A stretch of DNA of 62,946 nucleotides from Caldisericia bacterium (GCA_023146045.1 JAGLCW010000201.1:1-62946), one strand, 5' to 3'; shown: positions 31,642 through 61,282, numbered from the stretch's first letter. Notes: a model not told the origin generated them from the letters alone. Made by a program: numbers and translations.

Positions 31642-34600
31642 TTATGGGTAAGTTAATGATGCTTCCCATAATTGGGCATTCCACCCAACTTTCATTCCCA
31701 TTGCCTCTGCCACAAACCTTAATGGAATCAATGTTCTTCCATTTCTTAACTCTGGCTCAGCAGGCATTGATTTAGTTTCTTTTCTTCCGTCTTTATGAGT
31801 AATCATTGCGTTTTTATTATCAATCCAAAGATCGATATGGATACCTCTGAAATCATAGGAAACTTTCTTGCTCGCGCCTTCCCATCCTACAGTTGCTCCA
31901 AATGATTCTGCAACAACTCTAAAAGGTACCATTGTGTGCATATTGTATTTCAAATACGGTGGAGCATCTAGTGTAATTGGGGTTGCATTCAAATATGCAT
32001 TTTCGACGCCAATTCGTAACTTTAGGCAACACCTTACAATAAATGAAACTGTTACTATGTTGGTATTACCAACTCTGTCTACAACAGTCATTTGCAATAC
32101 ATTATCACCAGCTAAAACACTCATTCCAATTACTCTATCAAAACTACCCATTGAACTTACTGGTATAATGATTTCTTCAAGATTTTTGGTTAAAGATTTT
32201 ACACTAACAGAATCTATTCCCATTTCTGTGCTTCCTTTAACCCTAATATTTGCATGAAGTTCATTTCCATTAGAAGTCCTACCAAAATAGACATCTTCAA
32301 CGGTCTGATATAACTGTGGCATAGAAACCATTAGAACTGGAGGATTTACTTTTACAATAATTCTGTAAGTTCCAAACGTAATATTTCCAGCTTCATCAAT
32401 AGCTTTTATTTGCAGAATATTCTCACCATTTTTCAAAGATAATAGTGTAGAGAAAGTATTTTCAATCAATGATACAGGTTGCTGATTAAGAGTAACCATT
32501 ACAGGCGAAACATCATTGATTTTTACAGACAATGCAAAGGCTTTGTCTCTTGTGTATACAACTTCACTTTCAAGGTTTGTAACAATCTCTGGACCTTCTC
32601 CATCGTATGCATAATCAACTTCATATACTTCAGACTCAGTACCCATACTTGTTACTATTCTATAGTATAGAGTATGTCTACCAGGTTGATTTAATACTAT
32701 TGGATCAGTATATTTTTTCTCTTGAGCATTATCTATGTGATAGTAAAAAGTACCAATAACGTTTGATGTAAATATTGCAGTTGGTGCAGTTACAAACCAA
32801 CCAGAAAGACCATCTGGATGGTCAGGAGTTAGCAAACAATCTATTTCTAGATTTGGTTCTACAGTGAATGGCTCTGACATTATTTGTGACGGCTCTTTAT
32901 CTGTCCAAATACTAATTCTGTAGTCGTAACCAGCTTTTGTAGGATTTATTATGCCTGCTTGTTTATAAAAGACAATTATTACATCTTGATTATTTGCGAG
33001 CATCATACTAAGTGGTATTGTCACAACTTTGTCTTTTTTTGCTAAAGAACCTGATAGTCTTACATTGTTTACTGAAACAAAACTTCCGTGTAATTCTTCA
33101 GGAAGAACAAAATTATTTAGAGATAAATAAATGTTTTCTCCTTTTAACAAGGCACCGTAAGGTCCTAAATTGAATCTAACACTAAGTTCTGTTGGAGCAG
33201 CAATAGTAGCAGGTTTTAATCCAACTTTAACATCTTCTAATGCAGATTTATCAACAATTTGGAATGGTTCAGATTCAACTGTTGATTGCTCCACAGAAGT
33301 ATAAAGTCTACATTGATACATACCTGGAAATTCAGGATTTTTTATTCCAGCTTCTTTTGTAACAACTATTTCATTTAATGATAAAGCTTGAATCGTTCTA
33401 TCCAATTTAATAATTATAGATTTACCAGACACAGTCGGATCTTTTGAAGGTATCATTCCATTAATAACAACACTTGTTCTGGTAATTCTTTTTGGTAGTG
33501 CAAAATTGTAATCAAAAACAATTACAATTAAATCTCCAGAATTCAATTCTCCAGATACACCAGTTGTGAATTTAACTTCATACGATGCAATTTCTCCTGC
33601 TATTACAGGATTTGGTGAAACAACAACTTCTGAAAGTGAAGAAACACCAATATGGTATGCTTCAGATGTTGAAGGAGTTGGTTGTTTTGAAGTAAAAACA
33701 GATAGATGATAGTCTTTCTCAGTTTCTGGATTAATGACTCCCTTAATTATTAATTCAACTTTTTGCCCACCGTTTAGCTCTTTTGGTGGAACTATTCTAA
33801 TGAATTTATTGTTTCTATCGACAAATGGAACTATAAACAATCCTGATCCATTTACGTAAACATCTTGTGCGGAAATATAGCTTGGTAAAATAGTTTCGGA
33901 AGGGAATCGTATTGTTATTGTATCTGCTACATTCCCAAGTTCCCCGTCTAATCCTAGCGTAAAACCAATCTCATACTGTGCCGTAGCTCCAACAGTTGAT
34001 GGAGTTACATTTATTTCAGGCATACTTACGGAGCCAGGAGATGCAACCATTTCCATTTGTGTTACTGATCCAAATAATGGATGTGTTATTGTAACATTGA
34101 ATGATCCCTCTTTTGAATCCATACAGTAAAATTCAATTGTGCTGGTTCCTTCTTTAATTTGAATTTGGTTTTGCGAAATCCAAGTTGTAGAAGATTTTGA
34201 AAAACTTACTGTTTGAGAATCAGCACTTAAAACAATCATTATATCTCTATTTGTAGGGAATGGATTACCAAATATATCAGATATATTTACGATGATTGGA
34301 TCTGAAGGCTTATTAACTCTTAACAATCTTGGTGGAGTTCCAAAAGAAAGTTTTTTCTTCGATCCCCTTATTGTTAATGTCATTATTGCAGCATTATAAT
34401 CTTCAGAAGTTGCAGTTATTGAAATATTGTTTTGCTCTAACTCAGAAACGTAGAAAGGCATTGTTTCTGAAAAGTTTGTTGACACTTCTGTGAAGAACTT
34501 ATTCGTTGTTGTCCAGGTTACACCATCTTGAGAAAATCTTGTTGTTGTTGATGATGATGCCAATATTACTGACGTAGAAGAGTTTTGAGAAATCAAATTT

Positions 34601-37600
34601 CCTAATTCATCTGTCATTTTTACAGTAATTGGTCCAATTATCCCAGATGGTTCAAATGAAGATGGAAATGATGCTGGCTCAAATCTTAAATCATTTACAC
34701 CATTTCTTACATCAATTTCAGCTTGAGCTTCTCTATATGAGTCATTTTGCCTTACAACAACTGTTAGCGTACATCTTCCTTCAGATGTAGCCAAAAACGT
34801 TATTTCATTTGGATTTGTCATTTTCTGTATTTTTCCAAGAGCTGGACTAACAGAATATGTATAGCTTACATTTTCAATTAGTTCTCCATAACTGTCGTAA
34901 GCAACAACTATGAATGGTGTTTTATTTCCTCTTGATGTTGAAACCTTTGATGGGGTAAGTACTATGTTTTCTAGACCACCAACAACTGTAACTGTTGCAG
35001 ATGCAGTTCTAGGAGATTGAGAGCCATATGAAACTGTAACAGAAATACTACCTTTTCCGGTAGAATTGGCATAAAACTCTACTCTTGGATCGTTAAAACT
35101 ACCAATCCAACCAATATCTCCAGAAATATTCCAACGATACTCAACACCCCTGCTAATTCTGTTTCCGTTTACATCGTATACAAAAGTAGCAAATGTTTGT
35201 GTTTTGCCTTCTTCTATTCTTAGTTCATCAGGTGTAATTTCTATTCTACCAATCTCTAAATCTGGACAAATAAAAATACTTCTATCTCTCCTGCCTAAAC
35301 CAGCACCAACAACTTCAAAATACATTGTATGTGTTCCTTCACTTGTATTTTGAATATCGGCATCTTTTGTAAACTTAATTGTAACCATATCGTTCTTTCC
35401 AATTGCTATTGGTGAGACTAAAGTTACTGTGTATTGAGCTACAACCGGTTGAGTTCTACAAATTGTAGATCCAAACATAATGTTATAAGTATCCAGAGAA
35501 GATGGAATAAAAGTACCATTAGGAAAAGTTATATCAATGGCGGTTGTATTCGCAACAATTGTAACTGGAGTATAAAAAGTAAACACATACTCTGCATTTG
35601 TGTACGGAGTACAAGGAGAAATCTCTGCAGTAATATGTAATGGACCTGTATTTGCATATATTGTATATTCATTAGACATTAATGGAGATATTTTTGAACC
35701 CTCTCTTAGTGTCCATAATTCTAAATTATATGTTGTAGCTATTGTAGGGTTCTTCACATGTGCATCTTCTGCAATAATGATCTCTATATTAGAATTACCC
35801 TTTATTGCTATAGGAGAGTAAACTTGAATAGTTCTATCTATAGGGTTTGTTAGTGGGTTAATGTTGCAACGAATATTATTCACTCTGATTCTATTTGAAG
35901 CAATAGACGCTGGAATAGTTGTGTCTGCAGGAAATTCTAAATTAATAGTGTCTCCCATATTAAGCCCACCATAGGTACCTGTTTTGAACCTTATAGTGTA
36001 TATACCATCTACACCGACAAATGCTGGTCTTACAGAAACAGTAGGAATAGTATAAGAAACCGGCGTAATTGTATATTCTGAAGAAGAAGTATAAACTTCT
36101 TCCTTTGATGTTTTTACAAAAATTTGGTAATTCCCTGGGGAAGAAGGGTTTAGCATTCCAGATTGCTCTGTGAAATAAACATACAAATTGTCTAGATTAT
36201 TTACATTAATAGGCGTTGTAAATGTTACAATATTATGGTCAATTTTAACATTTAGAACTGCTACCTCATTACCGCTTATTATTCCATCTTGATCTACTAA
36301 TATTGTACTAGCGGGAATAAATGATGGCAACCTTGTTTCTTGAGGTAACATTATAGAAACTGTGTCAACTCTCGCAGTTAATGCGCCTATCGGGCCAGTT
36401 TCAAATCCAAAATCCATACCACAATCTCTTCCAGCAATATTGCTAGATAGGGCTACCTGTATTGGTAAATCATTATTTATTTCTGTTGCACCAACACCCT
36501 GGATTTTTGAGTACAAATAATAAATACCTGAAACTGCAGATGGCTCGGTAGCGGTATAAACATATAATGTGAAAGGTTGTGGAGTTACTGTAACAACTGG
36601 GTTATCTATGTCAGCTGATTTTAAAAACTTGATTGATACTTTTGAGCTATGACTAATTGATGTAGGTAATGGAATTTGAACCATTTTTGACCCAACAGGA
36701 TATGGTGCTACAGCATCTAAAACAGATGATCCACTATTTACTGGAATATTGTTAATCAAAATATTTCCTGGTGGTATCATATTTGTTGGCACTGGGTAGT
36801 TTGTATCAAATATTGCTTTGTATTGAGGTGGGAATATTACAGTAACAAACTGTCCTGATGCTACTCCACCACTTGAACCAGTAAGAAAATCAATTTCATA
36901 TTCAGCGCCTTTTCCGTTTGTTGGTATTGCTGGTTGAGGAATACAATATCCAGATGCATTTGGTAAAACAGAAACTCTAACAGCTCCAGATACCGTACCA
37001 ATTGTATATATTTTTGATTTAACTGGCATTGTTTCTTTTGATGTATAAGCTGTTAATGTGTATGATCCAGGTTCTGCTGGATTCGATATTCCACAACTTG
37101 TAAGAAATATAACTTTTGCATTTGTTTTTTGTGCAATAGTTGGAAATCCAGTTGGTAATACTACAACAACTTTTCTACCATAGACTTGAACAGAAGATGC
37201 TGTCATTTCGACAACAGCAGTAACATTTACTATTCTTACATTGTTTGGATTTATGAAAGAAGGAATGCTTGTGCCTTCTGGAAATTCAATTGTAATCTGT
37301 TCGTTCTCTTTAAGTCCTTCATCTACGTCACCGAGCGTTAATAGAATTTCTTGTTGAGAAACAACTTTTATCCCTGGTTCTCCTAAGGTAACATAAATGT
37401 CTTTAACTGATGTGTAAACCATAAATGGATCTGAGATAAATGGATCGATATCCCTTGGTATTTCAATTTTTATAGTGAAAAATTTTGGGGTAACATCAAT
37501 TGTTGGAACGATAATTTTAGCTTGCTTAGCTATTGTAACTACAACAGGCTTACCACCTTCAATAGATTGTGGTACAAAAATTGCAATCTGCCTTGTAACA

Positions 37601-39276
37601 GGATTTACTGTTGCTGGTGCGGTTGTAGCTACGCCATTAATCTGTATATCGCCTGCTGGTATGTCTATTAATGGTATTCCAGTTCCTTCTGGAAAAGTGA
37701 GTGTAATTGTATCGTTATTAAAAGTATACAATCCACCAGAATTTCTAAGATTAAAATTAATCTTCCAATCTGCTTCTTCTTCCGATTTGTTTGGTGTTAC
37801 TTCAACACTAGTCGTTGTGTAACCTTGAATTCTGTAATTCTGAGAAGTTACAATTGATGGCTCTTGTGATGTTGAAAGTCGTAAATTATATACACCAGCA
37901 ATTTCTGGGTTACGAATGCCAGCATCGGTTGTGAATATAAAGCATACGTATTGACCTGCTAGAACAGTTTCTGGAACAATAAATGAAACTTTATTGCCTG
38001 ATATTTGCGGGTCATAAGGAACATTTTTTGTTGCTCCAGTATAAGGTAAAACTGGTACAACTACAGGAGTTGGAGTAGCTATCTTAATGCTGTAGGCAGA
38101 AATTGTATTTGGAATTGTTGTACCGGATGGAAATATCACATCTACCCTACCAGAATTTGCAGTAAGTTTTCCTTGGTCTCCAACTTTAAAAGCACAATGA
38201 TATTCGGCTACTGTGCCAATTTTATCTGGTTGTACTTTTACTTCTGGAGCTTCAAGAGAAGTGTTAAGTGAATATGGATTAGACTCCAAAGGTGCTTCTA
38301 CTTGAGTTATTCCGTCACTTCTAAAAATGGAAATATTGATTGACCGATTTTCAAGTAAACCACTAGGATTAATAATACCAGAAGCAGTACTGAAAACAAT
38401 TGTCATTTCTGGGGCATAACTAGATGTTGTATTAATATTATTTGGAATGATTAAATCCATTTCACAAAAACTACCGGTTGGATTTGGTGCAGGAATTCCC
38501 TCTGAAATGAATTGAGGATCTACTGTTGGTCTTGCACCATTTATAGTAATGGATTCTTTTGGTATAGGGGCTCTAATGCTTGTAGCATGAGTTGGATCAC
38601 CACCAGCAATCAAATTTGCATCCCATTCAATTCTTATTCTATCTCCAGAATACAGTTTTTTGCTTGTTCCGCTACCTAATTTTAATTTTATAGTGTATTG
38701 AGCTCTTTCTCCTGCCCTATTCGGCTCAGGATAAACAGAAGCTCTACTCATTTCACTAACAATTTCAAATTGTGAAGAAGAAGCTGTTTCTATTTGCCTT
38801 TGGTTATTTGCCGCAGTATCGTAAGTTCTAAGTTGCAGCGCATAATTTCCTGGCGTAGGAGGATTAAGAATTTTGGTGTTTACAATTTCAATCTGTTGAA
38901 ATCCTGGATCCACAGCTGAGTCACCAACTTCAAATGAAAGTTTGTTTCCATTTAAGATTACAGTTCCAGGCTTAACAGATGGAGGAAGAGCGGAAGCTAC
39001 AGGTTTCTGTAATGTTACATTAAAATCTGCTGCTACAAATGGATTACCTACAGACCTTGACAGTAAGTCAAATGCTGCAGGAAAATCGATTTCTATTCTA
39101 CCACCTAGTGGAATATTTTCCGTATTTGTAAATTTCAGCGTGTGATTGGCAGGTGTTCCTGCTGTATTTGGATTTGGCTCATTAACAAATGTAGTAATAC
39201 GTGAATATCCAACAGCAACAACGGAAAATGCTAATATAAATCCTAAAACAAGACTAATACACTTTTTGCCGTTCAT
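31642..39276 (-). CDS. Giant secreted tandem-module surface protein A (2544 aa from the preferred start)
   Basis: Preferred start is ATG at 39276, after AAGGAGGAG; the ORF track starts at 39312. Order: signal/TM segment MNGKKCISLVLGFILAFSVVAVG, about 9 repeat modules, 2 Big_2-like Ig domains, 2 further Ig-like domains, 3 modules, then the common C-terminal cassette. Confidence 0.85.
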   Translation of the reverse strand: MNGKKCISLVLGFILAFSVVAVGYSRITTFVNEPNPNTAGTPANHTLKFTNTENIPLGGRIEIDFPAAFDLLSRSVGNPFVAADFNVTLQKPVASALPPSVKPGTVILNGNKLSFEVGDSAVDPGFQQIEIVNTKILNPPTPGNYALQLRTYDTAANNQRQIETASSSQFEIVSEMSRASVYPEPNRAGERAQYTIKLKLGSGTSKKLYSGDRIRIEWDANLIAGGDPTHATSIRAPIPKESITINGARPTVDPQFISEGIPAPNPTGSFCEMDLIIPNNINTTSSYAPEMTIVFSTASGIINPSGLLENRSINISIFRSDGITQVEAPLESNPYSLNTSLEAPEVKVQPDKIGTVAEYHCAFKVGDQGKLTANSGRVDVIFPSGTTIPNTISAYSIKIATPTPVVVPVLPYTGATKNVPYDPQISGNKVSFIVPETVLAGQYVCFIFTTDAGIRNPEIAGVYNLRLSTSQEPSIVTSQNYRIQGYTTTSVEVTPNKSEEEADWKINFNLRNSGGLYTFNNDTITLTFPEGTGIPLIDIPAGDIQINGVATTAPATVNPVTRQIAIFVPQSIEGGKPVVVTIAKQAKIIVPTIDVTPKFFTIKIEIPRDIDPFISDPFMVYTSVKDIYVTLGEPGIKVVSQQEILLTLGDVDEGLKENEQITIEFPEGTSIPSFINPNNVRIVNVTAVVEMTASSVQVYGRKVVVVLPTGFPTIAQKTNAKVIFLTSCGISNPAEPGSYTLTAYTSKETMPVKSKIYTIGTVSGAVRVSVLPNASGYCIPQPAIPTNGKGAEYEIDFLTGSSGGVASGQFVTVIFPPQYKAIFDTNYPVPTNMIPPGNILINNIPVNSGSSVLDAVAPYPVGSKMVQIPLPTSISHSSKVSIKFLKSADIDNPVVTVTPQPFTLYVYTATEPSAVSGIYYLYSKIQGVGATEINNDLPIQVALSSNIAGRDCGMDFGFETGPIGALTARVDTVSIMLPQETRLPSFIPASTILVDQDGIISGNEVAVLNVKIDHNIVTFTTPINVNNLDNLYVYFTEQSGMLNPSSPGNYQIFVKTSKEEVYTSSSEYTITPVSYTIPTVSVRPAFVGVDGIYTIRFKTGTYGGLNMGDTINLEFPADTTIPASIASNRIRVNNIRCNINPLTNPIDRTIQVYSPIAIKGNSNIEIIIAEDAHVKNPTIATTYNLELWTLREGSKISPLMSNEYTIYANTGPLHITAEISPCTPYTNAEYVFTFYTPVTIVANTTAIDITFPNGTFIPSSLDTYNIMFGSTICRTQPVVAQYTVTLVSPIAIGKNDMVTIKFTKDADIQNTSEGTHTMYFEVVGAGLGRRDRSIFICPDLEIGRIEITPDELRIEEGKTQTFATFVYDVNGNRISRGVEYRWNISGDIGWIGSFNDPRVEFYANSTGKGSISVTVSYGSQSPRTASATVTVVGGLENIVLTPSKVSTSRGNKTPFIVVAYDSYGELIENVSYTYSVSPALGKIQKMTNPNEITFLATSEGRCTLTVVVRQNDSYREAQAEIDVRNGVNDLRFEPASFPSSFEPSGIIGPITVKMTDELGNLISQNSSTSVILASSSTTTRFSQDGVTWTTTNKFFTEVSTNFSETMPFYVSELEQNNISITATSEDYNAAIMTLTIRGSKKKLSFGTPPRLLRVNKPSDPIIVNISDIFGNPFPTNRDIMIVLSADSQTVSFSKSSTTWISQNQIQIKEGTSTIEFYCMDSKEGSFNVTITHPLFGSVTQMEMVASPGSVSMPEINVTPSTVGATAQYEIGFTLGLDGELGNVADTITIRFPSETILPSYISAQDVYVNGSGLFIVPFVDRNNKFIRIVPPKELNGGQKVELIIKGVINPETEKDYHLSVFTSKQPTPSTSEAYHIGVSSLSEVVVSPNPVIAGEIASYEVKFTTGVSGELNSGDLIVIVFDYNFALPKRITRTSVVINGMIPSKDPTVSGKSIIIKLDRTIQALSLNEIVVTKEAGIKNPEFPGMYQCRLYTSVEQSTVESEPFQIVDKSALEDVKVGLKPATIAAPTELSVRFNLGPYGALLKGENIYLSLNNFVLPEELHGSFVSVNNVRLSGSLAKKDKVVTIPLSMMLANNQDVIIVFYKQAGIINPTKAGYDYRISIWTDKEPSQIMSEPFTVEPNLEIDCLLTPDHPDGLSGWFVTAPTAIFTSNVIGTFYYHIDNAQEKKYTDPIVLNQPGRHTLYYRIVTSMGTESEVYEVDYAYDGEGPEIVTNLESEVVYTRDKAFALSVKINDVSPVMVTLNQQPVSLIENTFSTLLSLKNGENILQIKAIDEAGNITFGTYRIIVKVNPPVLMVSMPQLYQTVEDVYFGRTSNGNELHANIRVKGSTEMGIDSVSVKSLTKNLEEIIIPVSSMGSFDRVIGMSVLAGDNVLQMTVVDRVGNTNIVTVSFIVRCCLKLRIGVENAYLNATPITLDAPPYLKYNMHTMVPFRVVAESFGATVGWEGASKKVSYDFRGIHIDLWIDNKNAMITHKDGRKETKSMPAEPELRNGRTLIPLRFVAEAMGMKVGWNAQLWEASLTYP
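31645..32853 (-). other. Common C-terminal cassette of protein A (GW(Y/F) beta-sandwich + two Ig-like domains + copper-amine-oxidase-N-terminal-like domain)
   Basis: Last 403 aa: DHPDGLSGWFVTAPTAIF... ; LNQQPVSL..F..LLSLKNGENILQIKAIDEAGN ; ...MVPFRVVAESFGATVGWEG ... NGRTLIPLRFVAEAMGMKVGWN. Confidence 0.7.
34705..35268 (-). other. Two tandem Big_2-like bacterial Ig domains in protein A
   Basis: IEITPDELRIEEGKTQTFATFVYDVNGNRISRGVEYRWNISGDIG...GKGSISVTV and IVLTPSKVSTSRGNKTPFIVVAYDSYGELIENVSYTYSVSP...EGRCTLTVVV. Boundaries are approximate. Confidence 0.6.
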
Positions 39277-50202: not shown

Positions 50203-50230
50203 AAATACGATTCACATAACAAATGGTTCA
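50203..50230 (-). promoter_or_regulatory. Candidate ECF-type promoter TGAACC-N15-CGTATTT upstream of giant gene B
   Basis: Minus strand taTGAACCatttgttatgtgaatCGTATTTtttac, i.e. GAAC-N16-CGTA, the classic ECF -35/-10 arrangement. It lies 42 nt upstream of the ATG at 50160 and immediately after the ATPase stop codon. Confidence 0.45.
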
Positions 50231-50232: not shown

Positions 50233-51423
50233 TTACACCATAAAGCCGTATATGGTCTTGTCTAAATCGCTAAAGTATTTCGAAATAATTGAAAACTCAT
50301 CCATTTTTATTTCTCCAGCAATTCGAGACAATCTAGTTAAATCAGTTTTTCTAGGATGCAGAGCAGTATCATATGCAACTATTTTGTTATTCTCTTTGCT
50401 AATAAAACAAATATGGGTTCCACTTTTACGCTCGTAATATTTAATATCACCACGAATTCTTAAATTTTGAAACACGCTATTTTCAAAAAGACAGTCTTCT
50501 GCTGCATGAGCAAAATGCCTTACCAATCCGACATCACAAACGTATATTTTGTTAGATTTTCGGATTTCCATTTTTGAACCTAGATTGTATGGTTTCAATA
50601 ACTTGATGAAATAGGAACCTTCCAAAAATTCGAGATATGAATATGTAGTGGCTCTTGAAATTCCTAATTCTTGAGAAATGTTTTGTACGTCGATTCTTTC
50701 CCCTGCTCTATTCATTAGCAGAAGCATTAGATCTCTAATAACAGAACTCTTTCTGTAGTTACTCATTTGAATAACTTCCAGATTAAAATATGATCTAAAT
50801 ATATCATCTAGTGCAGCGTTTTTTTCTGCAACACTTTGCTTAAGCACAACCTCTGGAAAACCACCAAACATAATGTATTCATCATACAAGGTTGATAGTT
50901 TTTCAAATATTGGGCGAGATACATTGTTTTTTTGAGAAGGTAAATTTATTCCTCTATCAGTAAAAGCAACAAACTCTTTAAATGTTAGAGGAAACAATTC
51001 GAAAACAATTTTTCTTCCGGCTAGTGATTCTTCAAACATTTTTCTTGAATAGTAATTAGTAGAACCAGTTAAGAAAAATTTTGTTTGAAAATGGTCAATA
51101 AAGTATTTGACTATCTTCGGAATATTTTTAAATAACTGTATTTCATCCAAAAATACGTATGAAGGTTCACTAAAGTTTATACCGAGAATTCCTAAAGAAG
51201 CCTGTATTTTATCAAAATTCTCTTCTTCGAAATATTTTCTGTTTAACGGATTTTCAAGATCTAACAGTAGCTTATTCTCAGATTCCGTTTCTTTGTACAA
51301 ATATCTTAAAAGAGTGGTTTTCCCGGTCCTCCTCATACCTGTGATAATAACTGCCTCTTTCGACTCGCGGTAAGGTTCAATTTTCTTTAAAATGTCCCGT
51401 TCCTTAAATCGATCTATTCGCAT
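50233..51423 (-). CDS. AAA-family ATPase with DUF4143-like C-terminal domain
   Basis: 396 aa. Walker A GMRRTGKTTLL, Walker B VFLDEIQ. The C-terminal half is typical of the AAA_14/DUF4143 stand-alone ATPases, with a winged-helix-like ISQELGISRATTYSYLEFLE. Confidence 0.85.
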   Translation of the reverse strand: MRIDRFKERDILKKIEPYRESKEAVIITGMRRTGKTTLLRYLYKETESENKLLLDLENPLNRKYFEEENFDKIQASLGILGINFSEPSYVFLDEIQLFKNIPKIVKYFIDHFQTKFFLTGSTNYYSRKMFEESLAGRKIVFELFPLTFKEFVAFTDRGINLPSQKNNVSRPIFEKLSTLYDEYIMFGGFPEVVLKQSVAEKNAALDDIFRSYFNLEVIQMSNYRKSSVIRDLMLLLMNRAGERIDVQNISQELGISRATTYSYLEFLEGSYFIKLLKPYNLGSKMEIRKSNKIYVCDVGLVRHFAHAAEDCLFENSVFQNLRIRGDIKYYERKSGTHICFISKENNKIVAYDTALHPRKTDLTRLSRIAGEIKMDEFSIISKYFSDLDKTIYGFMV

Positions 51424-51429
51424 ATCCTT

Positions 51430-51458
51430 AATTTACATAAAGTTTGACTATGTGTCAA
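51430..51458 (-). promoter_or_regulatory. Candidate sigma-70 promoter of the ATPase gene, abutting its ATG
   Basis: Minus strand TTGACA-N17-TAAATT. The -10 hexamer ends 6 nt before the ATG at 51423. Confidence 0.45.
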
Positions 51459-53358: not shown

Positions 53359-56300
53359 GATACTCCATTTTAACAGCATTTTCTTCTTTCAGGTAATTTA
53401 TTGTGAAACCAAATTCTTCTGCAAAAAAACGAAGTGGAACAAAAGTTCTTCCGTTTTGTATTACAGGTGGAACTGGTAATAATTTTTTTTCATCGTTTAC
53501 GGTTATTGTTCTATTGCCAATTTGTGCCTGTATAACGACACCCTCAGGATCTTTAATTGTTAGTATTTGGAACACAGACTCAAATTCAACTTCGCAACCA
53601 AGAAATTTTGTAAAAATCGTTAAAGGGATCATTGTATTTGAATCATATAGGAATATTGGTGATCCAAGGTCAATGTTCCCCATCGATGAATCTGCTACTT
53701 TATTGCCAATTTTAAACTTTACCCAAAAATCTTGATAGTATGTGACTGGTACCATATATTTTTTTGTGTTACCAGCAATATCCATTGCAATAAACTCAAG
53801 TGCGTTCACTCCACTTTGACAAAAATACTGAGTCATAAAGTTTCCATCGATTACGGGAAGCCTTTTACCGTTCAACGTAACATCAGCTTTTGGTTCAGTT
53901 CTTCCAGAAATAACAACTGCTTTTCTTATTGTTTTTGTCCATGGTTTAGGTTCAAGAATTGTAAGCTCTGGAGGAGTTTGATCCAAAATAATTTCTATTT
54001 GCTTCTCTATTCTGTTTCCAGCTTGATCGAATACAATCACTGAATATTCATTTTCACCCTCTTCAAGGTTTAAAACTATTGCCAATTTTCCATCTATTAA
54101 AGATGTTATTTCGATGTCCCCTATAAATGCATTTTTAAAATTGGATTCTACAATTGTTAAGAATAACTCGTAATTCTTCTTGTTTGTGTATATCTTATCT
54201 TCTTGCATTTGAATGAATGGTACAAGAGTATCAACTTTAACAATTTTTGACTTAATTCGTTCTTTTGCTTCACCTTGCTGGCTATAGTATCTGATCTCAT
54301 ATTCTCCAGACGAAAGAGTGAATGCTTGGTTGAAATTAATCCAATCTTCACCGTTTATTGAAAACCAGCTTTTGACAGTTTCAGGCTCATCGCTATAAAC
54401 AACAAAGGAAATTGTTGGTTCTGAAACATACCAATCATTATCACCGTTTGGAAATGAAGGATTAATCTCTATCTCAGTTTCTGGTAGAGGAATAATTGTA
54501 AATTTGTTAGAAGAAATAGTTTGAGATTCATTTTGCGTTGAAACACCAATTGAATATTCTCCAGATTGAGATGGATTTGTGAAACCAGCTTCAGGTAATA
54601 TCTGCACAAAAACTCTCTTATTTGCAGAAATATCGTCATCTAATGTTATCTCGATCCTTCCTCTTTCTGGACTAATCATAACAGGGAAAAGATCTAAATT
54701 GGTTCCATTTAATACAATTCCTTTTTGATAATCTTCTGGAAATCCAAATCTTGTATCAAGAAAAATGTATATTTTATTTCCTGCATCCAATGCTCCAGCA
54801 GGACCTGTTAAAAATGTTAGATGAAAAGCTGCTCTATCTTTTACAGTTGTAGCCGTAGCATCAACAATAACGTCAGAAACTGTAGATTCAAGAATTGGTA
54901 TTTTTCTTGAAGTAATATAAGAGACCTCTCTGCTAGTGGCAACACGAAAAACATATTCACCAGGAGTAGACGGATTTCTTATACCCGAATCTTCTAAAAA
55001 AGTAACTTCCACAATTGATTCAGCAGGAATTTCAACTGGAACATTTAGAACTACTTTATTCTCTACTTTTTTAACAAATGGTTGTGTTGTCATAGGTACT
55101 CCGTTTACTAGCACCCTTTCTTTAACAAAAGCGTTTGGAATATACATACCTCTTGGCATAATAATATATATCTGCCCGTTTTCCCTTGTTAATTTACCGC
55201 CACCGCCAGTTTTAAACGAAAATTCCATTGATGAAGCAACTGTAACATATGGAGAGCCAATACTAATAGTAAGGTCTCCTATCATGCTTGGTCCAATTTC
55301 AAACTCATTGGATTCAACGTTTGTTCCCTCTTTACCGGTGTGCACTTTTATTGTGTACCTGCCAACAGATTGAGGGTTTTGCAAACCAAATTCCTCTGAA
55401 ATAATTATTTCTACTGGACTTTCAGAATCAAATCCCACTGGAGTAAATATTTTCAATGTACCCGATCCTTCTGTTCTTGCAGACTTTGTTGTTCGAATTC
55501 CATTAATTCTAATATCCCCAGGTAGAGATGTTTCTGGCAGTGTAACTGATGTTGGAAAATAAACTGTTATTATTCCATTCTCTCTCATAGTACCCACTAA
55601 ACCAGTTGTAAAAGTTATTGTCCACTCTGAAGTAGTATTTATGTATGGTTTGTCGATTTGAACATTAAGATTTTTTATTAAGCTATTTTTAATTCTATAG
55701 TAACTTGAGTTTACTCTAATGTTGTCTGCATTTGTCCACACAATACAACGGTATTGATCTGGGCTAGATGGATTTTTAATTCCTGCTTCTATTAAAAATT
55801 TAACTTCAACATCTGATTCTTCCAGCACCACCATACCAGGATATATTTTAACTACCCTACCATTAACAACTGGATCTGCGTCCGAACAATACTGACCATT
55901 AACAAGAATATTCTCTGCAGAAATTGACGTTGGAATTTTTGTACCATATGGGAATTCTACCATTATGTAACCACCATAGCAGCTACCAAGTCTTCCGGTG
56001 CTAGAGGTTGTGAATTTGATCTTATACTCAGCATTTTCACCAACTATGTCTGGTGATACTTCAACAGTAGGATTAGAGATAATTGATCCGACTATTGCAT
56101 AGCTGTTTGATAAAGCCCAGTAAGGTTGTTTGCTTGTTGCCACACCCATCCTATAACAAGCTCCCCCTCTTGGGTTTTGAACCTTACACATTCTTACATA
56201 GATTTGCGTTGTGTCCCTAAAAGAATTTGGAATAGTTATTACTACAATTTGGTTATCATTTTTATCTTGTTCAACATAGTAAGAAGCAGGAATACCGTTT

Positions 56301-56833
56301 ACTGTAATAGCATTGCAACTTGAATAACGCGAAAACTCTGTTCCGTAAGGAAAAGCTAAATATATTTTATCTCCCGGAACTAATTGGCCACAATTATCTG
56401 TATTGAACATTATGTAGTATGTTGCCAATTCTCCTGCCTGGTTTGGGTCAACTCTAATCTGTACATTTCTAACTTGAGTATTACCAACTTCAAAAACAAC
56501 AGATTGAGAAACACCATTTGAAGAAGCAGATAAAGTTATTTTACCTGGAGTAGTAGCTATAAACGTGTACTGCCTTTTATCTACTGAAGGACCACCGCGA
56601 CCTGGACCAACTTGCATCCATTTAAAAACTGCTGAAGGAATTGGTGCTCCGTTTTCATCATAAGCTGTTGCAGTAAAGGTTACTGTGTCACCTATTTTAA
56701 GGCATGTTACATTAGGAGTTATTGTAATGCGCGTTAAGGCAGCTTTAGCAGTCATTGGAAAACAGTACGAGAAGAATAAAACACTAATCATGAAAATTAC
56801 AGTATTTAGTCTAGAAATTTTTAATCTATTCAT
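53348..56833 (-). CDS. Secreted tandem-module surface protein C (1161 aa)
   Basis: Signal peptide MNRLKISRLNTVIFMISVLFFSYCFPMTAKA. Order: one Big_2-like domain, 5 modules, then the common C-terminal cassette. ATG follows AGGAGGAG, 12 nt after the gene D stop. Confidence 0.88.
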   Translation of the reverse strand: MNRLKISRLNTVIFMISVLFFSYCFPMTAKAALTRITITPNVTCLKIGDTVTFTATAYDENGAPIPSAVFKWMQVGPGRGGPSVDKRQYTFIATTPGKITLSASSNGVSQSVVFEVGNTQVRNVQIRVDPNQAGELATYYIMFNTDNCGQLVPGDKIYLAFPYGTEFSRYSSCNAITVNGIPASYYVEQDKNDNQIVVITIPNSFRDTTQIYVRMCKVQNPRGGACYRMGVATSKQPYWALSNSYAIVGSIISNPTVEVSPDIVGENAEYKIKFTTSSTGRLGSCYGGYIMVEFPYGTKIPTSISAENILVNGQYCSDADPVVNGRVVKIYPGMVVLEESDVEVKFLIEAGIKNPSSPDQYRCIVWTNADNIRVNSSYYRIKNSLIKNLNVQIDKPYINTTSEWTITFTTGLVGTMRENGIITVYFPTSVTLPETSLPGDIRINGIRTTKSARTEGSGTLKIFTPVGFDSESPVEIIISEEFGLQNPQSVGRYTIKVHTGKEGTNVESNEFEIGPSMIGDLTISIGSPYVTVASSMEFSFKTGGGGKLTRENGQIYIIMPRGMYIPNAFVKERVLVNGVPMTTQPFVKKVENKVVLNVPVEIPAESIVEVTFLEDSGIRNPSTPGEYVFRVATSREVSYITSRKIPILESTVSDVIVDATATTVKDRAAFHLTFLTGPAGALDAGNKIYIFLDTRFGFPEDYQKGIVLNGTNLDLFPVMISPERGRIEITLDDDISANKRVFVQILPEAGFTNPSQSGEYSIGVSTQNESQTISSNKFTIIPLPETEIEINPSFPNGDNDWYVSEPTISFVVYSDEPETVKSWFSINGEDWINFNQAFTLSSGEYEIRYYSQQGEAKERIKSKIVKVDTLVPFIQMQEDKIYTNKKNYELFLTIVESNFKNAFIGDIEITSLIDGKLAIVLNLEEGENEYSVIVFDQAGNRIEKQIEIILDQTPPELTILEPKPWTKTIRKAVVISGRTEPKADVTLNGKRLPVIDGNFMTQYFCQSGVNALEFIAMDIAGNTKKYMVPVTYYQDFWVKFKIGNKVADSSMGNIDLGSPIFLYDSNTMIPLTIFTKFLGCEVEFESVFQILTIKDPEGVVIQAQIGNRTITVNDEKKLLPVPPVIQNGRTFVPLRFFAEEFGFTINYLKEENAVKMEYHET
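53351..54481 (-). other. Common C-terminal cassette of protein C
   Basis: Last ~377 aa: FPNGDNDWYVSEPTISF... ; LNLEEGENEYSVIVFDQAGN ; LNGKRLPVIDGNF...GVNALEFIAMDIAGN ; NGRTFVPLRFFAEEFGFTINY. Confidence 0.7.
56485..56740 (-). other. Big_2-like Ig domain at the N-terminus of protein C
   Basis: ITITPNVTCLKIGDTVTFTATAYDENGAPIPSAVFKWMQVG...PGKITLSASSNGVSQSVVFEV. Boundaries are approximate. Confidence 0.6.
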
Positions 56834-56845
56834 TTTATTCTCCTC

Positions 56846-58486
56846 CTATTTACAGAAAGCAATGTAAACTGTATCGCTTTCTTTTTTGTATGTTATTTCA
56901 GCTCCAAGAATTTTTTTAGTGAATTCTATTGGAATCATTATGTTACCGTCTATAACAGTTGGAGGATAATAAATATCATGTTCGGTTACTGTGTCACCTT
57001 CTACAATTTTAACTACTGAATCGTTCGGTCTAACATATATGCTGATATTTTCTTTCTTTAAAATTGCTGCATTTTGCTTTGCATCCCAAAGCAATTCATA
57101 TGAAAGTGATTCTGCTACAAATCTTATTGGTAAATATATTTCTCCATTTTTAGAATCTCTAAATGGAAATGGATTAACTTCTACAAGTTCATGATTCACA
57201 TATACTTTTTGTTTTTTCAAGTTAACTTCTAAAACTATTCCAGAATAATACATGTATGAATTCACAATTTTTGAAACATTTCCAGCTCTATCTGTACATG
57301 AAACAAGTATTGTATTTTCTCCCTCTTCTGGATTAATTACTGTGTTAAAATTCCCATAGTTATCCATTTCTACTACAATTCCGTTAACTTCCAAAATACA
57401 TGCTGGCTCTGCTTTTCCAATAACACTAACTGAATATCCACACACAAGTTGATCTTTAGTTGGTGAAAAAAGTTTAAGAACTGGAGCTGTAACGTCAACA
57501 AAATATGTAAGCGTATCTGTTAAACTGTATCCTGCTTCATTTAAAACAGTGTATTCAATTAAATTTTTCCCTGGTTTTAGGGATACCGTAATTTCTGATT
57601 CTCCATCTTTAACAGAAAAAATCTTTTCAAGAATTTTTATCGAAGTTGGTGAAATAGATTCAATTTCAAACTTAATTTTAACCTCAAGAGTATTTATCCA
57701 CACTTTGTTTTTGGGGATTATATTCGTGCAAGTTGGAGGATATGGGTCAATTTTCCATTTTTTAACTTCAACTTTTTCTTTTAATCCTGTGGTTCGTCTT
57801 CCAAAATACGATAAAATGTGTACACCTTCTTGTATTTGGACTTTTTCCCCAGAAAAAAGTATGTATTCATTACCATCTATGGAATAGTAAATATTTTCGG
57901 CTTTTCTAGAATTAAATGAAATTTGAGGTTTTTCTGAAAACCAACCAAATTCATTAACACTATTGTTCTCATCAATAATTACATCAACTGTATTTTTTGG
58001 AATTATCAACTGTATTGTCTCTGATTCATAGAACTTTTCTTGTTTTTCTATAAAAATTGTAAAGCTGAACTGTTCTTCAGAAATTGGATTTTTTAATTCC
58101 GCATTCTCTTCTAGTGAAAATGACAAATTGCTGACAAATGTTATTGGAAGCTGTATCCTAACATTATTATTTTCAGTTTTTTCAACGGATAATGCACTAT
58201 AAGTATCAAATGTGAAGTGTTCTTCTTTAAAATCTGGTAGTTCATATACTTCTGGAAAAACAAGTGTGATCCAATCAGCTTCCTGAAACAAATCTCCGTT
58301 GGTATGTAATTGGAAGTTTATTGAAACATCTTCTCCCTGTTCAAGGTTTGAAATTTCAGCAAAAAAACTACTTTCGTATTTTGGTTGAATAACTCCAAAG
58401 GTGTTAGCTTTTGCTCTCGATGGAAAATATCCAAAAGAAGAAAGAAAAAAACAGACAGCAAGTGAAGACACTAATAATGATTTCAT
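56846..58486 (-). CDS. Secreted surface protein D (546 aa): one module plus the common C-terminal cassette
   Basis: Preferred start is ATG at 58486, 6 nt after AGGAGA; the ORF track starts at 58525. Signal peptide MKSLLVSSLAVCFFLSSFGYFPSRAKA. One module ends NAELKNPISEEQFSFTIFIEKQE, followed by the cassette. Confidence 0.85.
   Translation of the reverse strand: MKSLLVSSLAVCFFLSSFGYFPSRAKANTFGVIQPKYESSFFAEISNLEQGEDVSINFQLHTNGDLFQEADWITLVFPEVYELPDFKEEHFTFDTYSALSVEKTENNNVRIQLPITFVSNLSFSLEENAELKNPISEEQFSFTIFIEKQEKFYESETIQLIIPKNTVDVIIDENNSVNEFGWFSEKPQISFNSRKAENIYYSIDGNEYILFSGEKVQIQEGVHILSYFGRRTTGLKEKVEVKKWKIDPYPPTCTNIIPKNKVWINTLEVKIKFEIESISPTSIKILEKIFSVKDGESEITVSLKPGKNLIEYTVLNEAGYSLTDTLTYFVDVTAPVLKLFSPTKDQLVCGYSVSVIGKAEPACILEVNGIVVEMDNYGNFNTVINPEEGENTILVSCTDRAGNVSKIVNSYMYYSGIVLEVNLKKQKVYVNHELVEVNPFPFRDSKNGEIYLPIRFVAESLSYELLWDAKQNAAILKKENISIYVRPNDSVVKIVEGDTVTEHDIYYPPTVIDGNIMIPIEFTKKILGAEITYKKESDTVYIAFCK
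56849..57988 (-). other. Common C-terminal cassette of protein D
   Basis: Last ~380 aa: NEFGWFSEKPQISF... ; VSLKPGKNLIEYTVLNEAGY ; VNGIVVEMDNYGNFNTVINPEEGENTILVSCTDRAGN ; NGEIYLPIRFVAESLSYELLW ... GNIMIPIEFTKKILGAEITY. Confidence 0.7.
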
Positions 58487-60720
58487 ATCCATTCTCCTGT
58501 TCCGGGTATAGCGTCCTTTTCCCATGCAATATCAGTGGCAATGTAGGAGCCTTCCTGTGTATAAACATTGCAGTAAACTACTTCACCAATTTCAAGTTTT
58601 CCATCACCATAGTACTTTGTTGAATCATTGAAATGGATTACAACTCCATTATCTAGAATAAACCATTGGTTAATCGTATCAATTTCTACAATTTCACCCT
58701 GCATTATTACAGATTCTTTTTCAACAGTAACAATGTATCCATGAAGAATACTTTGTTCTGATTTTCCAGAAATTTGAACAATGCGCCCAATTTTTAATTC
58801 ACCTTGAATTTCTGTTAAATCGTCAATTTTCAAAATGTATCCGTTATCTAATTGATATAGGGAATTAGCTTCTAATTCTTTTGTAATCATTCCCTTAACA
58901 CTTATTAATGTGCCCAAGCAAAAAGTTCTCCACTCAAGAGCGATATTTATTGTTCCATAAGAAACTACTTTTCCTTGAAAAACAAATGTTTCAGAAACAT
59001 CTATAAGTGTGTCATAAAGATAAATTCTGTTGTTATCAAAGAGGGAATTTAATATAACAATGCCGTTAGGTAATACTTCTAAAACACTAACTGTATATTG
59101 TGCTACATTCGCTTTGTCAGAGTAATGATCTGTTACATTTGTCATTCCGTTTGATTCTGAATATCTAAGAGATTCGCCTATAGATAAAGAACTAGAAACA
59201 GATTCTCGATAAATGGTTTTGCCACTGAGTAAGAAATACTCATTTTCGTTAACACCAACTACAATATCGCTTTGATATTGAATTGGAGTCTGTGGCGTTC
59301 TAACTTTTTCTGATTGTTTATCTGGTGTTGAAACAACAGGATTAGAATTTTTTGTACTATTTTCAGTTTGACTCGCTTGAGAAGGTGCAGAAGCAAGATA
59401 TAGATCATTATTTAATTCTTCAGATGAGACAATAGACAATATGTCATTCACAATAAAGAATGATCCGAAGTCTTCTCCTTGAACGGTAACAAAGTCTCCT
59501 ATTTCGAGAATTGCTGAATCTTTACCAGTAGCAAATGTCATTGAAACTGATTCTAAAACAAATCCATTTTTCCCAGAATATTTAACGCTTCCAGATATTG
59601 ATCTGTTAACAGACTTTTGAATTTTACATAGTGACAATGCTATATAGTTGTTATCAATATTTTTAACTCTACATAAAAAATCTTCATCAATTTTCTCAAT
59701 ATCACATGATTCTAAATTTTCTAGTATTCTATTACTTACGTAAATCGATTTGTCGAAATCCTCAATAATTAACTGGTTATTCTCAAAAGAAATTACTTTT
59801 CCGATTACATATTCGCTTCCTGGTAAATCCTCTATTGATGTTATTGTCCAATTTTCATTTTGGTTTTTCAAAACAAATTTGCATAACGAAAAAGGACTTA
59901 ATCTTTGTATTGTCACAAAATCACAAATCAAAGGTTTACTAAAAGAGTCAATTACTACAGTATTGGTTTCGTAATCAAATGAAACTACCATACCATCAAT
60001 CGACAAGTGGGTATCACCTGGCAACAACGTAAATGTTTCAATATATTTAAGAAATTGCTTCCACGTTTTGTATGCAGGTACACCAGCTTTTTTCATAGCT
60101 TTCATATATTGGTCTTGGGAAACATTTTTGTATATATCTGAATAACTCATGTTTGATTTTTCTGAAAGGAATTTTGTAAACAATAACTTATTTCTGCTTG
60201 ATTCACTATTGCTAAATAAAAACTCCTGTCCTTCATTTGTATCGGCATAAAACCCTGCAAACTGTAATTTTTCTTCTTCTTTTGATCCAAAAGTTTCAGT
60301 TGAAACAATTACATCCTTATTCTTAATGCTTTCCTTCATTTTTTCGTTCATTATTATTGAATACATAGGCTGTTGATCTATAAATGGAACATACACAAAA
60401 GCCATTATAACCAGAAGAAACGCCATTGCTCCACCTATTATGTATCTAAGAGAATGAAATGTCTTTTTCTTTGGAGCACTTCGGTTCAGTATTTCAGAAG
60501 AAACACTTTGTATAGTATTCCTAATTAGCCAATCTTTTTCTGGGGTAAACTCCAATTTTTCAGAATTTTCTTTTGTTGGGGACATGTGGCTTAATAGCTG
60601 ATCAACTCCAATTTTTAGTCTACAAGATTCGCATTCTTTTATGTGAGCTGATACCCATTCAGGTTTTGGTTCGTTTGGGTGATTCAAAATCCAATTTTCT
60701 ACTTTTTTACAATTATTCAT
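58483..60720 (-). CDS. Zinc-finger (HxxxCxxC) anti-sigma factor with single TM and ~640 aa extracytoplasmic domain
   Basis: N-terminal HIKECESC motif, TM YIIGGAMAFLLVIMAFVYVPFI. The start overlaps the sigma gene stop by 8 nt. The ectodomain carries several short beta-rich repeats of the form (L/I)xIG(D/E/R)xVxxxG. Confidence 0.8.
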   Translation of the reverse strand: MNNCKKVENWILNHPNEPKPEWVSAHIKECESCRLKIGVDQLLSHMSPTKENSEKLEFTPEKDWLIRNTIQSVSSEILNRSAPKKKTFHSLRYIIGGAMAFLLVIMAFVYVPFIDQQPMYSIIMNEKMKESIKNKDVIVSTETFGSKEEEKLQFAGFYADTNEGQEFLFSNSESSRNKLLFTKFLSEKSNMSYSDIYKNVSQDQYMKAMKKAGVPAYKTWKQFLKYIETFTLLPGDTHLSIDGMVVSFDYETNTVVIDSFSKPLICDFVTIQRLSPFSLCKFVLKNQNENWTITSIEDLPGSEYVIGKVISFENNQLIIEDFDKSIYVSNRILENLESCDIEKIDEDFLCRVKNIDNNYIALSLCKIQKSVNRSISGSVKYSGKNGFVLESVSMTFATGKDSAILEIGDFVTVQGEDFGSFFIVNDILSIVSSEELNNDLYLASAPSQASQTENSTKNSNPVVSTPDKQSEKVRTPQTPIQYQSDIVVGVNENEYFLLSGKTIYRESVSSSLSIGESLRYSESNGMTNVTDHYSDKANVAQYTVSVLEVLPNGIVILNSLFDNNRIYLYDTLIDVSETFVFQGKVVSYGTINIALEWRTFCLGTLISVKGMITKELEANSLYQLDNGYILKIDDLTEIQGELKIGRIVQISGKSEQSILHGYIVTVEKESVIMQGEIVEIDTINQWFILDNGVVIHFNDSTKYYGDGKLEIGEVVYCNVYTQEGSYIATDIAWEKDAIPGTGEWI

Positions 60721-61282
60721 GTTGCCCCCCTTTCTTATATAGGGATATTTTTTTTGCTAATTTTTTTCTTACACTAAACAATCTACTTTTTACTGTTCCT
60801 TCTGGAATGTCTATAACTATTGCTACATCACTTATAGAAAATCCTTCTATGTAAAAAAGTTCTAGTAACTTTTTATCTTGGGGTTTTAGTTCTTGCATAC
60901 ACACATTCATTATTTTAACTTCTTCAGAATCCATCATTACTTCATCGACTCTATCTTCAAATTCGTTGCTGTAATTTTTAAAACATTCTGTTCCAGTTAT
61001 GTATCTATTCTTTTTTCTAAAAAAACTATTTGCTTGGTTGTGCGCTATTCTATGCAACCATGGACGAATAGGATATTTTGTATCAAATTTTTCGATGCTT
61101 TTAAAAAATGATACAAAAGCTTCAGATGCAATATCTTGTGCGTCATCTTTATTTTTTGAAATTCCATAAGCAGCTCTTAGAATTTCTTCACCAAATTCCT
61201 GATAAATTGTAGTCATGGCTTCTGAATCTCCTCGTTTTGCTAATTCAATAAGTTTTTTTTCTTCTTTTCGAGTCAAACTCAT
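60713..61282 (-). CDS. ECF-type RNA polymerase sigma factor (sigma-70 regions 2 and 4 only)
   Basis: 189 aa. Region 2 is DAQDIASEAFVSFFKSIEKFD...RPWLHRIAHNQANSFFRKK. Region 4.2 HTH is EGFSISDVAIVIDIPEGTVKSRLFSVRKKL. ATG at 61282 lies 8 nt after GGAG. Confidence 0.9.
   Translation of the reverse strand: MSLTRKEEKKLIELAKRGDSEAMTTIYQEFGEEILRAAYGISKNKDDAQDIASEAFVSFFKSIEKFDTKYPIRPWLHRIAHNQANSFFRKKNRYITGTECFKNYSNEFEDRVDEVMMDSEEVKIMNVCMQELKPQDKKLLELFYIEGFSISDVAIVIDIPEGTVKSRLFSVRKKLAKKISLYKKGGQHE

Follow-up and report, generated by a model that had tools for sequence, protein, structure and literature searches.

A conserved Caldisericota locus of giant repeat proteins, probably controlled by its own sigma factor

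Large surface proteins of bacteria have been described in several forms, such as exported chains of immunoglobulin (Ig)-like repeats, the S-layer proteins of monoderms and the biofilm coat protein BslA, which is a single-domain protein of 181 amino acids (aa). Envelope-sensing switches are also known, among them the pairs of an extracytoplasmic function (ECF) sigma factor and a zinc-binding anti-sigma factor (ZAS) of the SigW-RsiW type; the consensus of Bacillus subtilis SigW is TGAAAC-N16-CGTA. Here, we describe a locus in which parts of these kinds are brought together, found in 62,946 nucleotides (nt) of DNA from a Caldisericia bacterium (GCA_023146045.1 JAGLCW010000201.1:1-62946), this whole stretch being called the window below. 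An unbroken run of genes on the minus strand, from 61282 to 31642 in the map of open reading frames (ORFs), encodes an ECF sigma factor, its anti-sigma factor, four exported repeat proteins (D, C, B and A, in the order of transcription) and a family 2 glycosyltransferase (GT2). Judged from its genes, it is a real, conserved and uncharacterized surface-protein system made from known kinds of parts, and it is probably sigma-controlled. A preliminary description of this DNA could not match the combination to any described system, and searches of Pfam, NCBIfam, PDB and the literature likewise gave no characterized one; no paper describing these proteins was found in the literature search, and little has been published on Cu_amine_oxidN1, on DUF2808 or on the envelope of Caldisericota. 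The layout given in the preliminary description was confirmed, and its interpretation was borne out in part.

The four exported proteins together occupy 23.6 kb, in agreement with the approximately 24 kb that had been assigned to secreted proteins with one repeated module and one shared C-terminal cassette. An iterated profile seeded from one segment of C recovered 39 copies of a single 122-position module, 12 in A, 21 in B, five in C and one in D, with single-domain E-values of 1e-16 to 1e-41, and all four proteins end in the same cassette of ~400 aa. D (56846-58486, minus strand, as are all the genes of the locus; 546 aa) consists of a signal peptide, one module and the cassette, with matches to Cu_amine_oxidN1 and Glucodextran_B, while C (53348-56833; 1161 aa) has a signal peptide, a Big-like domain, five modules and the cassette. 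In B (39322-50160; 3612 aa, 387 kDa), the signal peptide is followed by 16 modules, a Big_2-like insert, five further modules and a cassette with two stalk-domain matches, and A (31642-39276; 2544 aa, 277 kDa) is composed of a signal peptide, nine modules, an Ig-like insert of ~425 aa, three modules and the cassette. The N-terminal hydrophobic segments of all four resemble signal peptides, as expected from the Sec-type export proposed earlier, and the hydrophilic C-termini are the ends of stalk domains. Pfam scans of the locus proteins and inspection of the C-termini were negative for sortase, SLH, LPXTG and type I, V and IX secretion signals, as had been stated, and specifically for LPXTG with a hydrophobic tail, SLH, RTX, autotransporter and Por_Secre_tail signatures in A-D. 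The proteins are acidic (pI 4.8-5.1) and contain few cysteines. The AlphaFold2 (AF2) model of D (mean predicted local distance difference test, pLDDT, 83.6) sets the module, three beta-sandwich domains and an alpha/beta stalk domain in a row, and its matches in the PDB were generic multi-Ig chains only, including titin, the S-layer proteins EA1 and SbsB, SraP and GhpA, which is a giant fibre protein. A-D are all-beta exported proteins of the beads-on-a-string kind. No DNA-level tandem repeats were found in their arrays, which are consequently neither assembly artefacts nor recent amplifications; for the same reason, slipped-strand or phase variation was dropped as a candidate.

The module (~120 aa) is predicted, with very high confidence, to fold as a beta-sandwich (AF2 pLDDT 95.5). 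Its best match among solved structures was BslA (4bhu; E 6e-4, TM-score 0.53, ~12% identity), YweA being also among the matches, and these were followed by beta-sandwiches of the carbohydrate-binding module (CBM) type (CBM2, chitin-binding; TM-score ~0.40-0.60) and of the pilin type and by MSCRAMM adhesins. At the sequence level, one module of B matched the BslA family PF17735 with 20.6 bits, below the cutoff of 38.7, and DUF2808 (PF10989), itself an uncharacterized family, passed its cutoff of 25.3 bits only as whole-protein sums (38.9 in B, 28.3 in C), no single stretch being above threshold. The module profile gave nothing significant against PDB sequences, the best E-value of 0.009 being chance-like. 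By these comparisons, the module is without an adequate Pfam family. Isopeptide-bonded pilin domains, suggested by the fold matches, were discarded since the alignment has no conserved lysine; the conserved positions are mainly prolines, glycines and residues of buried type.

The module is not confined to this locus: ~2,700 protein clusters carry it, including proteins from KSB1 sorted by the type IX secretion system (T9SS). An exhaustive hidden Markov model (HMM) search of 1.84 billion representatives retrieved 2,705 proteins at E <= 1e-3, of which 449 reached E <= 1e-30, each entry standing for a cluster at 50% identity, and copy numbers of 4-26 are frequent among them; the exhaustive search was needed, the word-indexed homology search with the module alignment having returned three fragments only. 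In some of the homologues, the place of the cassette is taken by Por_Secre_tail or FlgD_ig, a T9SS sorting domain, and the occurrence of the array with such a domain in KSB1 and other lineages argues for an extracellular repeat with interchangeable anchors. As seen by profile search, the module is a widespread, undescribed extracellular repeat. The T9SS-tailed proteins P0011, P0022, P0027, P0059 and P0065 are ~1,600-3,100 aa long; there is among such proteins a recurrent subfamily of ~1,600 aa with 10 modules, and annotation places a larger member (3,091 aa) in candidate division KSB1.

The shared cassette, to which the preliminary description had assigned no domains, proved to be recognizable as Ig-like domains joined to the Pfam Cu_amine_oxidN1 'stalk' domain. 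It comprises a beta domain resembling the OmpL47 type, Ig-like domains including Glucodextran_B, and one or two matches to Cu_amine_oxidN1 (PF07833; 63.0 bits in D, 88.9 in C, 92.2 in A and 143.9 in B, cutoff 24.2), and a relative from Caldisericum exile is named 'stalk domain-containing protein' by NCBI. In one Paenibacillus preprint, Cu_amine_oxidN1 is counted among predicted cell-wall-binding modules. The Glucodextran_B plus Cu_amine_oxidN1 cassette also ends other Caldisericota exoproteins (L019 1-3395; P0216-P0223), among them a Peptidase_C25 protein of 2209 aa and proteins that are lipase/PGAP1-like or contain FN3, and it has the look of a device for surface retention used across the phylum.

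A metagenome scaffold matches the window, in which the locus lies between housekeeping genes, dnaE, rplT, infC, der and ftsH on one side and, directly downstream of A, trx-rimP-nusA-infB-rbfA-truB-ribF on the other. NusA is 72-78% identical to that of several Caldisericota/Caldisericia metagenome-assembled genomes (MAGs), and both C and the GT2 have their named relatives in Caldisericum or Caldisericia; a scan of GTDB with the single NusA protein gave 36%-identical Lachnospiraceae matches by chance words, and a three-sequence alignment was what reached Caldisericota. By these gene contents, the window is chromosomal Caldisericota DNA. An origin as a mobile island was rejected on the grounds of the housekeeping flanks, the matching composition and the conserved synteny.

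A comparative-genomics search for the same gene neighborhood, which had been proposed as a check, revealed four other lineages with the order GAF-sigma-antisigma-D-C-GT2-AAA_14-B-A-trx-rimP-nusA, represented by L010 (NusA 77% identical to the window), L019-L021 (C 66%), L009/L022 (NusA 57%, C 51%) and L023/L024 (C 49%). Two of the loci, L009 and L010, contain all four genes, and both repeat the module counts of 1/5/21/12 for D, C, B and A. In the more distant of these full loci, from the genome with NusA at 57%, 33 of the 39 modules match their positional counterpart best, and the best cross-genome match averages 48% identity, whereas paralogous modules within the window average 26%. The positional exceptions include modules 4/8 and 5/7 of B, which swap their best cross-genome matches and point to a younger two-module super-repeat in an otherwise ancient array. 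Lengths are kept as well: the orthologues of C, at 45-66% identity, all measure 1152-1161 aa, those of B measure 3580 and 3618 aa and have 21 modules too, and those of A measure 2521-2557 aa with 12 modules (13 in one case) and, in several Caldisericota MAGs, immediately precede trx-rimP-nusA. The identities of B/A/C were 72/69/65% where NusA is 77% identical, and 50/44/50% where NusA is 57% identical, so that the divergence of A, B and C exceeds that of NusA only modestly.

Array counts and positional identities frozen across genera argue for a length-defined structural protein set and not for a fast-evolving repeat adhesin. This bears on the alternative that A-D are C-terminally anchored fibrillar adhesins or biofilm-matrix proteins with long Ig-like stalks, the GT2 making an exopolysaccharide similar to poly-N-acetylglucosamine (PNAG) or cellulose and the ECF pair switching on an attached lifestyle, which we regard as possible but rather doubtful. 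The signal peptide, the long Ig-like repeat stalk and the terminal anchor, by which fibrillar adhesins are defined in PMC9210967, are all present in A-D, the role of the anchor being assigned by analogy. Moreover, the module fold matches Gram-positive pilins, MSCRAMM adhesins and CBMs, the D model matches SraP, the nearest NCBIfam model for the GT2 is PgaC/IcaA, and BslA, the nearest fold, coats biofilms. However, no distinct adhesive domain was found at the tips of the proteins: behind the signal peptide, A, B and D have an ordinary module first, and C opens with a Big-like domain to which modules are joined. In addition, adhesins usually have near-identical, variable repeats, whereas those of A-D are ancient and diverged, keep their positions and do not change in number between genera; the proteins evolve at a rate not far above that of NusA, and the locus belongs to the core genome.

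At the head of the run stands the sigma factor gene (60713-61282; 189 aa), whose product matches Pfam Sigma70_r2, Sigma70_r4_2 and Sigma70_ECF, is small, with the sigma2 and sigma4 regions only, and scores 90.3 bits against TIGR02937 sigma70-ECF (cutoff 42.9). On sequence grounds, it is a bona fide ECF (group IV) sigma-70 factor. It falls in no named NCBIfam equivalog (SigW, SigM, SigV, RpoE and others, 65-99 bits against cutoffs of 124-261), the nearest named models being SigW/SigM-like and each match being below the model's own cutoff. The anti-sigma factor (58483-60720; 745 aa) carries an HxxxCxxC motif (HIKECESC) at residue 26 and a single transmembrane (TM) segment at 93-111, followed by ~630 external residues. 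The locus was said earlier to own a regulator pair with an external sensor domain of ~640 aa, and both halves of that statement hold, given the ~630 residues beyond the TM segment and the ECF partner identified by Pfam and TIGR02937. DUF5666 at 674-731 (30.0 bits, cutoff 27) was the sole domain signal in Pfam, and as zf-HC2 (PF13490) was absent at E <= 0.01, it is by its motif and by the place of its gene that the protein is assigned to the ZAS type. Searches of PDB sequences and NCBIfam gave no relatives of the anti-sigma factor, whose length is kept at 730-750 aa in the syntenic loci.

A candidate ECF-type promoter of B was located at 50205..50230 (minus strand), with the sequence TGAACC-N15-CGTAT. 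The comparison of intergenic regions revealed that ATGAAC(C/G), followed after 15-17 nt by (C)GTAT, is conserved in five loci at ~60-70 nt 5' of the B start, the remaining spacer having diverged. A stricter form of the pattern had its sole match there in four syntenic locus records (23-31 kb) and one of two in L023, and it was missing from related loci without the sigma pair; two looser patterns gave three and two matches in the 63-kb window, the B site being in both sets. The predicted promoter before B-A has the shape of an ECF promoter, and this conserved motif lends sequence support to the link between locus and sigma factor claimed in the preliminary description.

The same comparison speaks to the alternative that the neighbors are functionally unrelated, the sigma pair, the GT2 and the giant genes being co-located merely by gene order inherited in one clade. 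In favor of this, an unrelated gene has been able to stay within the cluster, as the case of AAA_14 demonstrates, the association is absent in distant relatives, and the housekeeping synteny trx-rimP-nusA is conserved too. Nevertheless, the overlaps of sigma with anti-sigma, of anti-sigma with D and of C with GT2 are kept across lineages, the ECF-type motif stands exactly before B and is confined to loci with the sigma pair, and the region upstream of GAF varies while the cluster stays constant, so that we consider mere co-location improbable.

The GT2 (51526-53358; 610 aa as in its homologues, with an ORF open back to the first ATG at 53379) matches Pfam Glyco_trans_2_3 with 59.9 bits (cutoff 27). 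It had been called processive in type, which is supported by the D, DxD-like, TED and QxxRW motifs (DES69, DAE327, TED420 and QRLRW458) and by the 1 + 3 TM segments. An insertion of ~200 aa splits the catalytic domain. The nearest NCBIfam model, the PgaC/IcaA equivalog TIGR03937, was matched with 53.9 bits against a cutoff of 422.3, and cellulose synthase TIGR03030 with 27.4 bits against 699; Pfam scans of the locus gave no pgaABD/icaDBC partner genes and no matches to PilZ or BcsB, and a search of PDB sequences gave no match for the GT2. The subfamily is common in Caldisericia and anaerobic Bacillota, and in every syntenic locus the GT2 start overlaps the end of C. A general tie of this subfamily to stalk proteins, with its product as the ligand of the anchor, was tried and found unsupported, the GT2 of Moorella standing alone; in another Caldisericota-like genome, stalk proteins lie 5-9 kb from a GT2, but they are too common there to count.

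A further alternative is that the modules are carbohydrate-binding domains, the proteins coating or organizing the GT2 polymer or capturing environmental polysaccharide while the anti-sigma ectodomain senses polymer. Such sensing has a precedent in the RsgI-type anti-sigma factors, which sense polymer for the cellulosome genes of Clostridium thermocellum, and the large extracellular domain of the anti-sigma factor, the translational coupling of the GT2 to C in all lineages and the fold matches to CBM2 and chitin-binding domains (TM-score ~0.40-0.60) would suit it. Yet these matches are weak, concern generic beta-sandwiches and come after BslA, the module alignment lacks a conserved aromatic platform, glycoside hydrolases are not encoded in the locus, and related proteins occur with no GT2 nearby. 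We therefore give this explanation little credence.

All the junctions reported earlier were recovered in the ORF map: the sigma and anti-sigma genes overlap by 8 nt, anti-sigma and D share an ATGA overlap with the ATG of D at 58486, which is also the start called in the source record, D and C are separated by 12 nt (56834-56845), C overlaps the GT2 gene by 11 nt with the start at 53358 or by 32 nt with the first ATG at 53379, and 45 nt separate B from A, which starts at ATG 39276 behind a GGAGG site. A strong intrinsic terminator, a hairpin with a 19-bp stem and a T-run at 31626..31586 (minus strand), follows A, as had been noted. This layout is not due to chance, given the module E-values and the recurrence in other genomes. 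The single-strand run thus stands, but the tiny gaps or overlaps do not extend throughout, since spacers of 102 nt and 72 nt flank a gene that had been omitted, encoding an AAA_14/DUF4143 ATPase (50233-51423; 396 aa). With these spacers, the locus is probably not one operon, and the single transcription unit previously assumed gives way to probably three or more, predicted as (GAF)-sigma-antisigma-D-C-GT2, AAA_14, and B-A through the terminator.

The AAA_14 gene has its own sigma70-like promoter (51430-51458, minus strand; TTGACA-17-TAAATT), conserved as TTGACA-N17-TAAA(T/G)T in L019, L022 and L023. Its product matches Pfam AAA_14 and DUF4143 and the PADLOC candidate defence model PDC-S01 (E 2.6e-60), and it looks like a candidate phage-defence gene that probably plays no role in the surface system. 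Its position between GT2 and B is kept in all syntenic loci, which suggests an old, stably embedded passenger.

For the sigma gene, a candidate promoter was placed at 61349..61378 (minus strand; TTGAAC-18-TATTCA), ambiguous between the sigma70 and ECF types. The form TTGAAC-18-TATT(C/A)(A/T) is common to the window and L019, and TTTGAACC and the sequence downstream are conserved between the two. The stretch GTAGAAAACAnAAGGCAGGCAnTGTATGAA is also conserved between the window (61283-61415, minus strand) and L019 (5383-5530), 3' of the putative sigma promoter and in an otherwise divergent spacer, and it may be an element of the 5' untranslated region. Upstream lies a gene for a single-domain GAF protein (61416-61904, minus strand; 162 aa; Pfam GAF and GAF_2), a conserved neighbor that precedes sigma in L019, L022 and L023 and is possibly co-transcribed with it; we take the protein to resemble GAF proteins of the free methionine-R-sulfoxide reductase type. 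In L023, 24 nt lie between GAF and sigma and a sigma70-type promoter is found upstream of GAF, so that transcription there appears to start upstream of GAF and not directly before sigma.

The reading that we favor, with moderate confidence, is that this chromosomal cluster of one Caldisericota clade encodes surface proteins of fixed, graded length, the two largest of which would be under an envelope-sensing ECF sigma factor. The cassette would hold the C-terminus at the wall and the module arrays would project outward, by ~25, 45, 85 and 120 nm if ~4 nm is estimated per domain. Sigma, anti-sigma, D, C and GT2 would be made as one unit, supplying the short proteins and a glycan, which could serve as matrix or as ligand of the cassette or the modules. 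Upon detection of an envelope or extracellular cue by the ~630-aa ectodomain of the anti-sigma factor, sigma would be released and would drive the B-A promoter, adding the long proteins. What results would then be a coat of protein(-glycan) with a structural role, built as fibrils or in layers; an adhesin that varies rapidly is less likely. The locus probably builds part of the outer cell coat of Caldisericota, although from sequence the system could be a fibre coat, a sheath or an adhesin.

Several points weigh against this favored reading. The B-A promoter is a motif match, an autoregulatory ECF promoter upstream of sigma was not clearly found in the intergenic comparison, and a terminator scan of the window gave none between GT2, AAA_14 and B, so that the units may be blurred by read-through. 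It is by analogy that Cu_amine_oxidN1 is assumed to bind the wall. With identities of 31-43%, D is fast-evolving, and its single module has no clear positional orthologue. In distant Caldisericota, module plus stalk genes have no sigma pair or GT2 within 10 kb, which makes the association with both clade-specific and indicates that a GT2 is not generally required for such proteins; conversely, relatives of the GT2 stand alone in Moorella, with stalk proteins absent nearby. The module plus stalk proteins of those distant genomes take the form of a tandem giant pair (25 + 12 modules, L008), of single genes or of clusters of paralogues of 937-1236 aa.

A bolder extension concerns the envelope of C. 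exile, the only well-known isolate, an envelope that is outer-membrane-like and 'electron-lucent' in electron microscopy, without BamA and annotated outer-membrane proteins (PMC4104836, PMC7736352), and for which PMC7203096, citing Antunes et al. 2016, states that no lipopolysaccharide enzymes were identified; the Caldiserica are also discussed among the lineages having lost the outer membrane (10.1101/2021.05.31.446380). A-D, possibly with the GT2 product, might constitute this 'electron-lucent outer envelope' as a non-lipid protein(-glycan) layer tuned by the ECF factor according to envelope signals, with module counts acting as rulers for spacing and thickness, an idea that we hold to be unlikely. 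What C. exile yielded was a 936-aa relative, not the complete locus.

Other features were observed around the locus. A thioredoxin gene (31200-31532) follows A, and the lineages differ 5' of GAF, in contrast to the constant cluster: a Gp49-like/HTH_3 toxin-antitoxin-like pair occupies this region in the window (62250-62830) and in L007 (56-697), a second, divergently transcribed GT2 (474-481 aa) is found at that position in L019 and L022, and L022 also has sugar-nucleotide genes. Upstream of infC-rplT, the 5' end of a 649-aa ORF (9645-11594, minus strand) overlaps tRNA genes at 11470-11543 and 11558-11632 (minus strand), so that the true start probably lies 3' of the listed GTG. At the left end of the window (503-3675, minus strand) lie a sigma54-dependent response regulator and a histidine kinase; a similar pair adjoins a 928-aa module plus stalk protein in L025/L026, another Caldisericota lineage, which may be a coincidence.

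For the little-known phylum Caldisericota, the locus gives concrete candidates for what lies outside the wall, namely a phylum-typical retention cassette, a widespread undescribed Ig-like module and a predicted sigma-promoter pair. Giant repeat proteins with repeat number and identity frozen across genera are rare and would suggest a length-defining structural role; if A-D were ordinary adhesins instead, less would be gained, namely a new stalk-repeat family and evidence of Cu_amine_oxidN1 as a surface anchor outside Firmicutes.

Among known systems, the giant Ig-repeat proteins, such as the T9SS-secreted GhpA of Aureispira and the staphylococcal SraP, have the same signal peptide, beta-sandwich chain and terminal retention module, and the same module family occurs in the T9SS-sorted KSB1 giants. 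Unlike these adhesins, the locus proteins have no adhesive head, their repeats are ~26% identical, positionally conserved and fixed in number, and four graded paralogues are accompanied by a dedicated sigma pair and a GT2. BslA, a biofilm hydrophobin of B. subtilis, and YweA are matched by the module in fold, and B gives a weak Pfam BslA match; however, the module is only ~12% identical, is arranged in multi-copy arrays and scores below the Pfam cutoff. With the surface and S-layer proteins of monoderms that are held non-covalently by SLH or CWB2 anchors (EA1, SbsB), A-D share an acidic, all-beta, multidomain build and a dedicated terminal retention module that many exoproteins of the organism have in common, but the anchor here is Cu_amine_oxidN1, to which wall anchoring is ascribed by analogy, and, unlike single-species S-layer proteins, A-D reach 387 kDa and form a graded paralogue set, the likeness being one of composition.

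As for the regulators, the SigW-RsiW type pairs likewise consist of a group IV sigma factor overlapping a single-pass HxxxCxxC anti-sigma factor with a large external domain, and the locus motif TGAACC-N15-17-CGTAT resembles the SigW consensus; on the other hand, the sigma factor lies below all named cutoffs, the ectodomain, with DUF5666-like beta-barrels, has no characterized counterpart, and the putative regulon is drawn from one promoter. The processive GT2s (PgaC/IcaA, BcsA, NodC, hyaluronan synthase) share the D, DxD-like, TED and QxxRW motifs and flanking TM segments, whereas, unlike PgaC/BcsA, the locus GT2 is far below the cutoffs, carries the ~200-aa insertion and has no PgaABD, Bcs or PilZ partners. 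What is unusual is the fixed, positionally conserved arrays in four graded paralogues and the clade-specific ECF promoter; by analogy, the locus would work like wall-anchored giant Ig-repeat surface proteins joined to an ECF/ZAS envelope-sensing switch.

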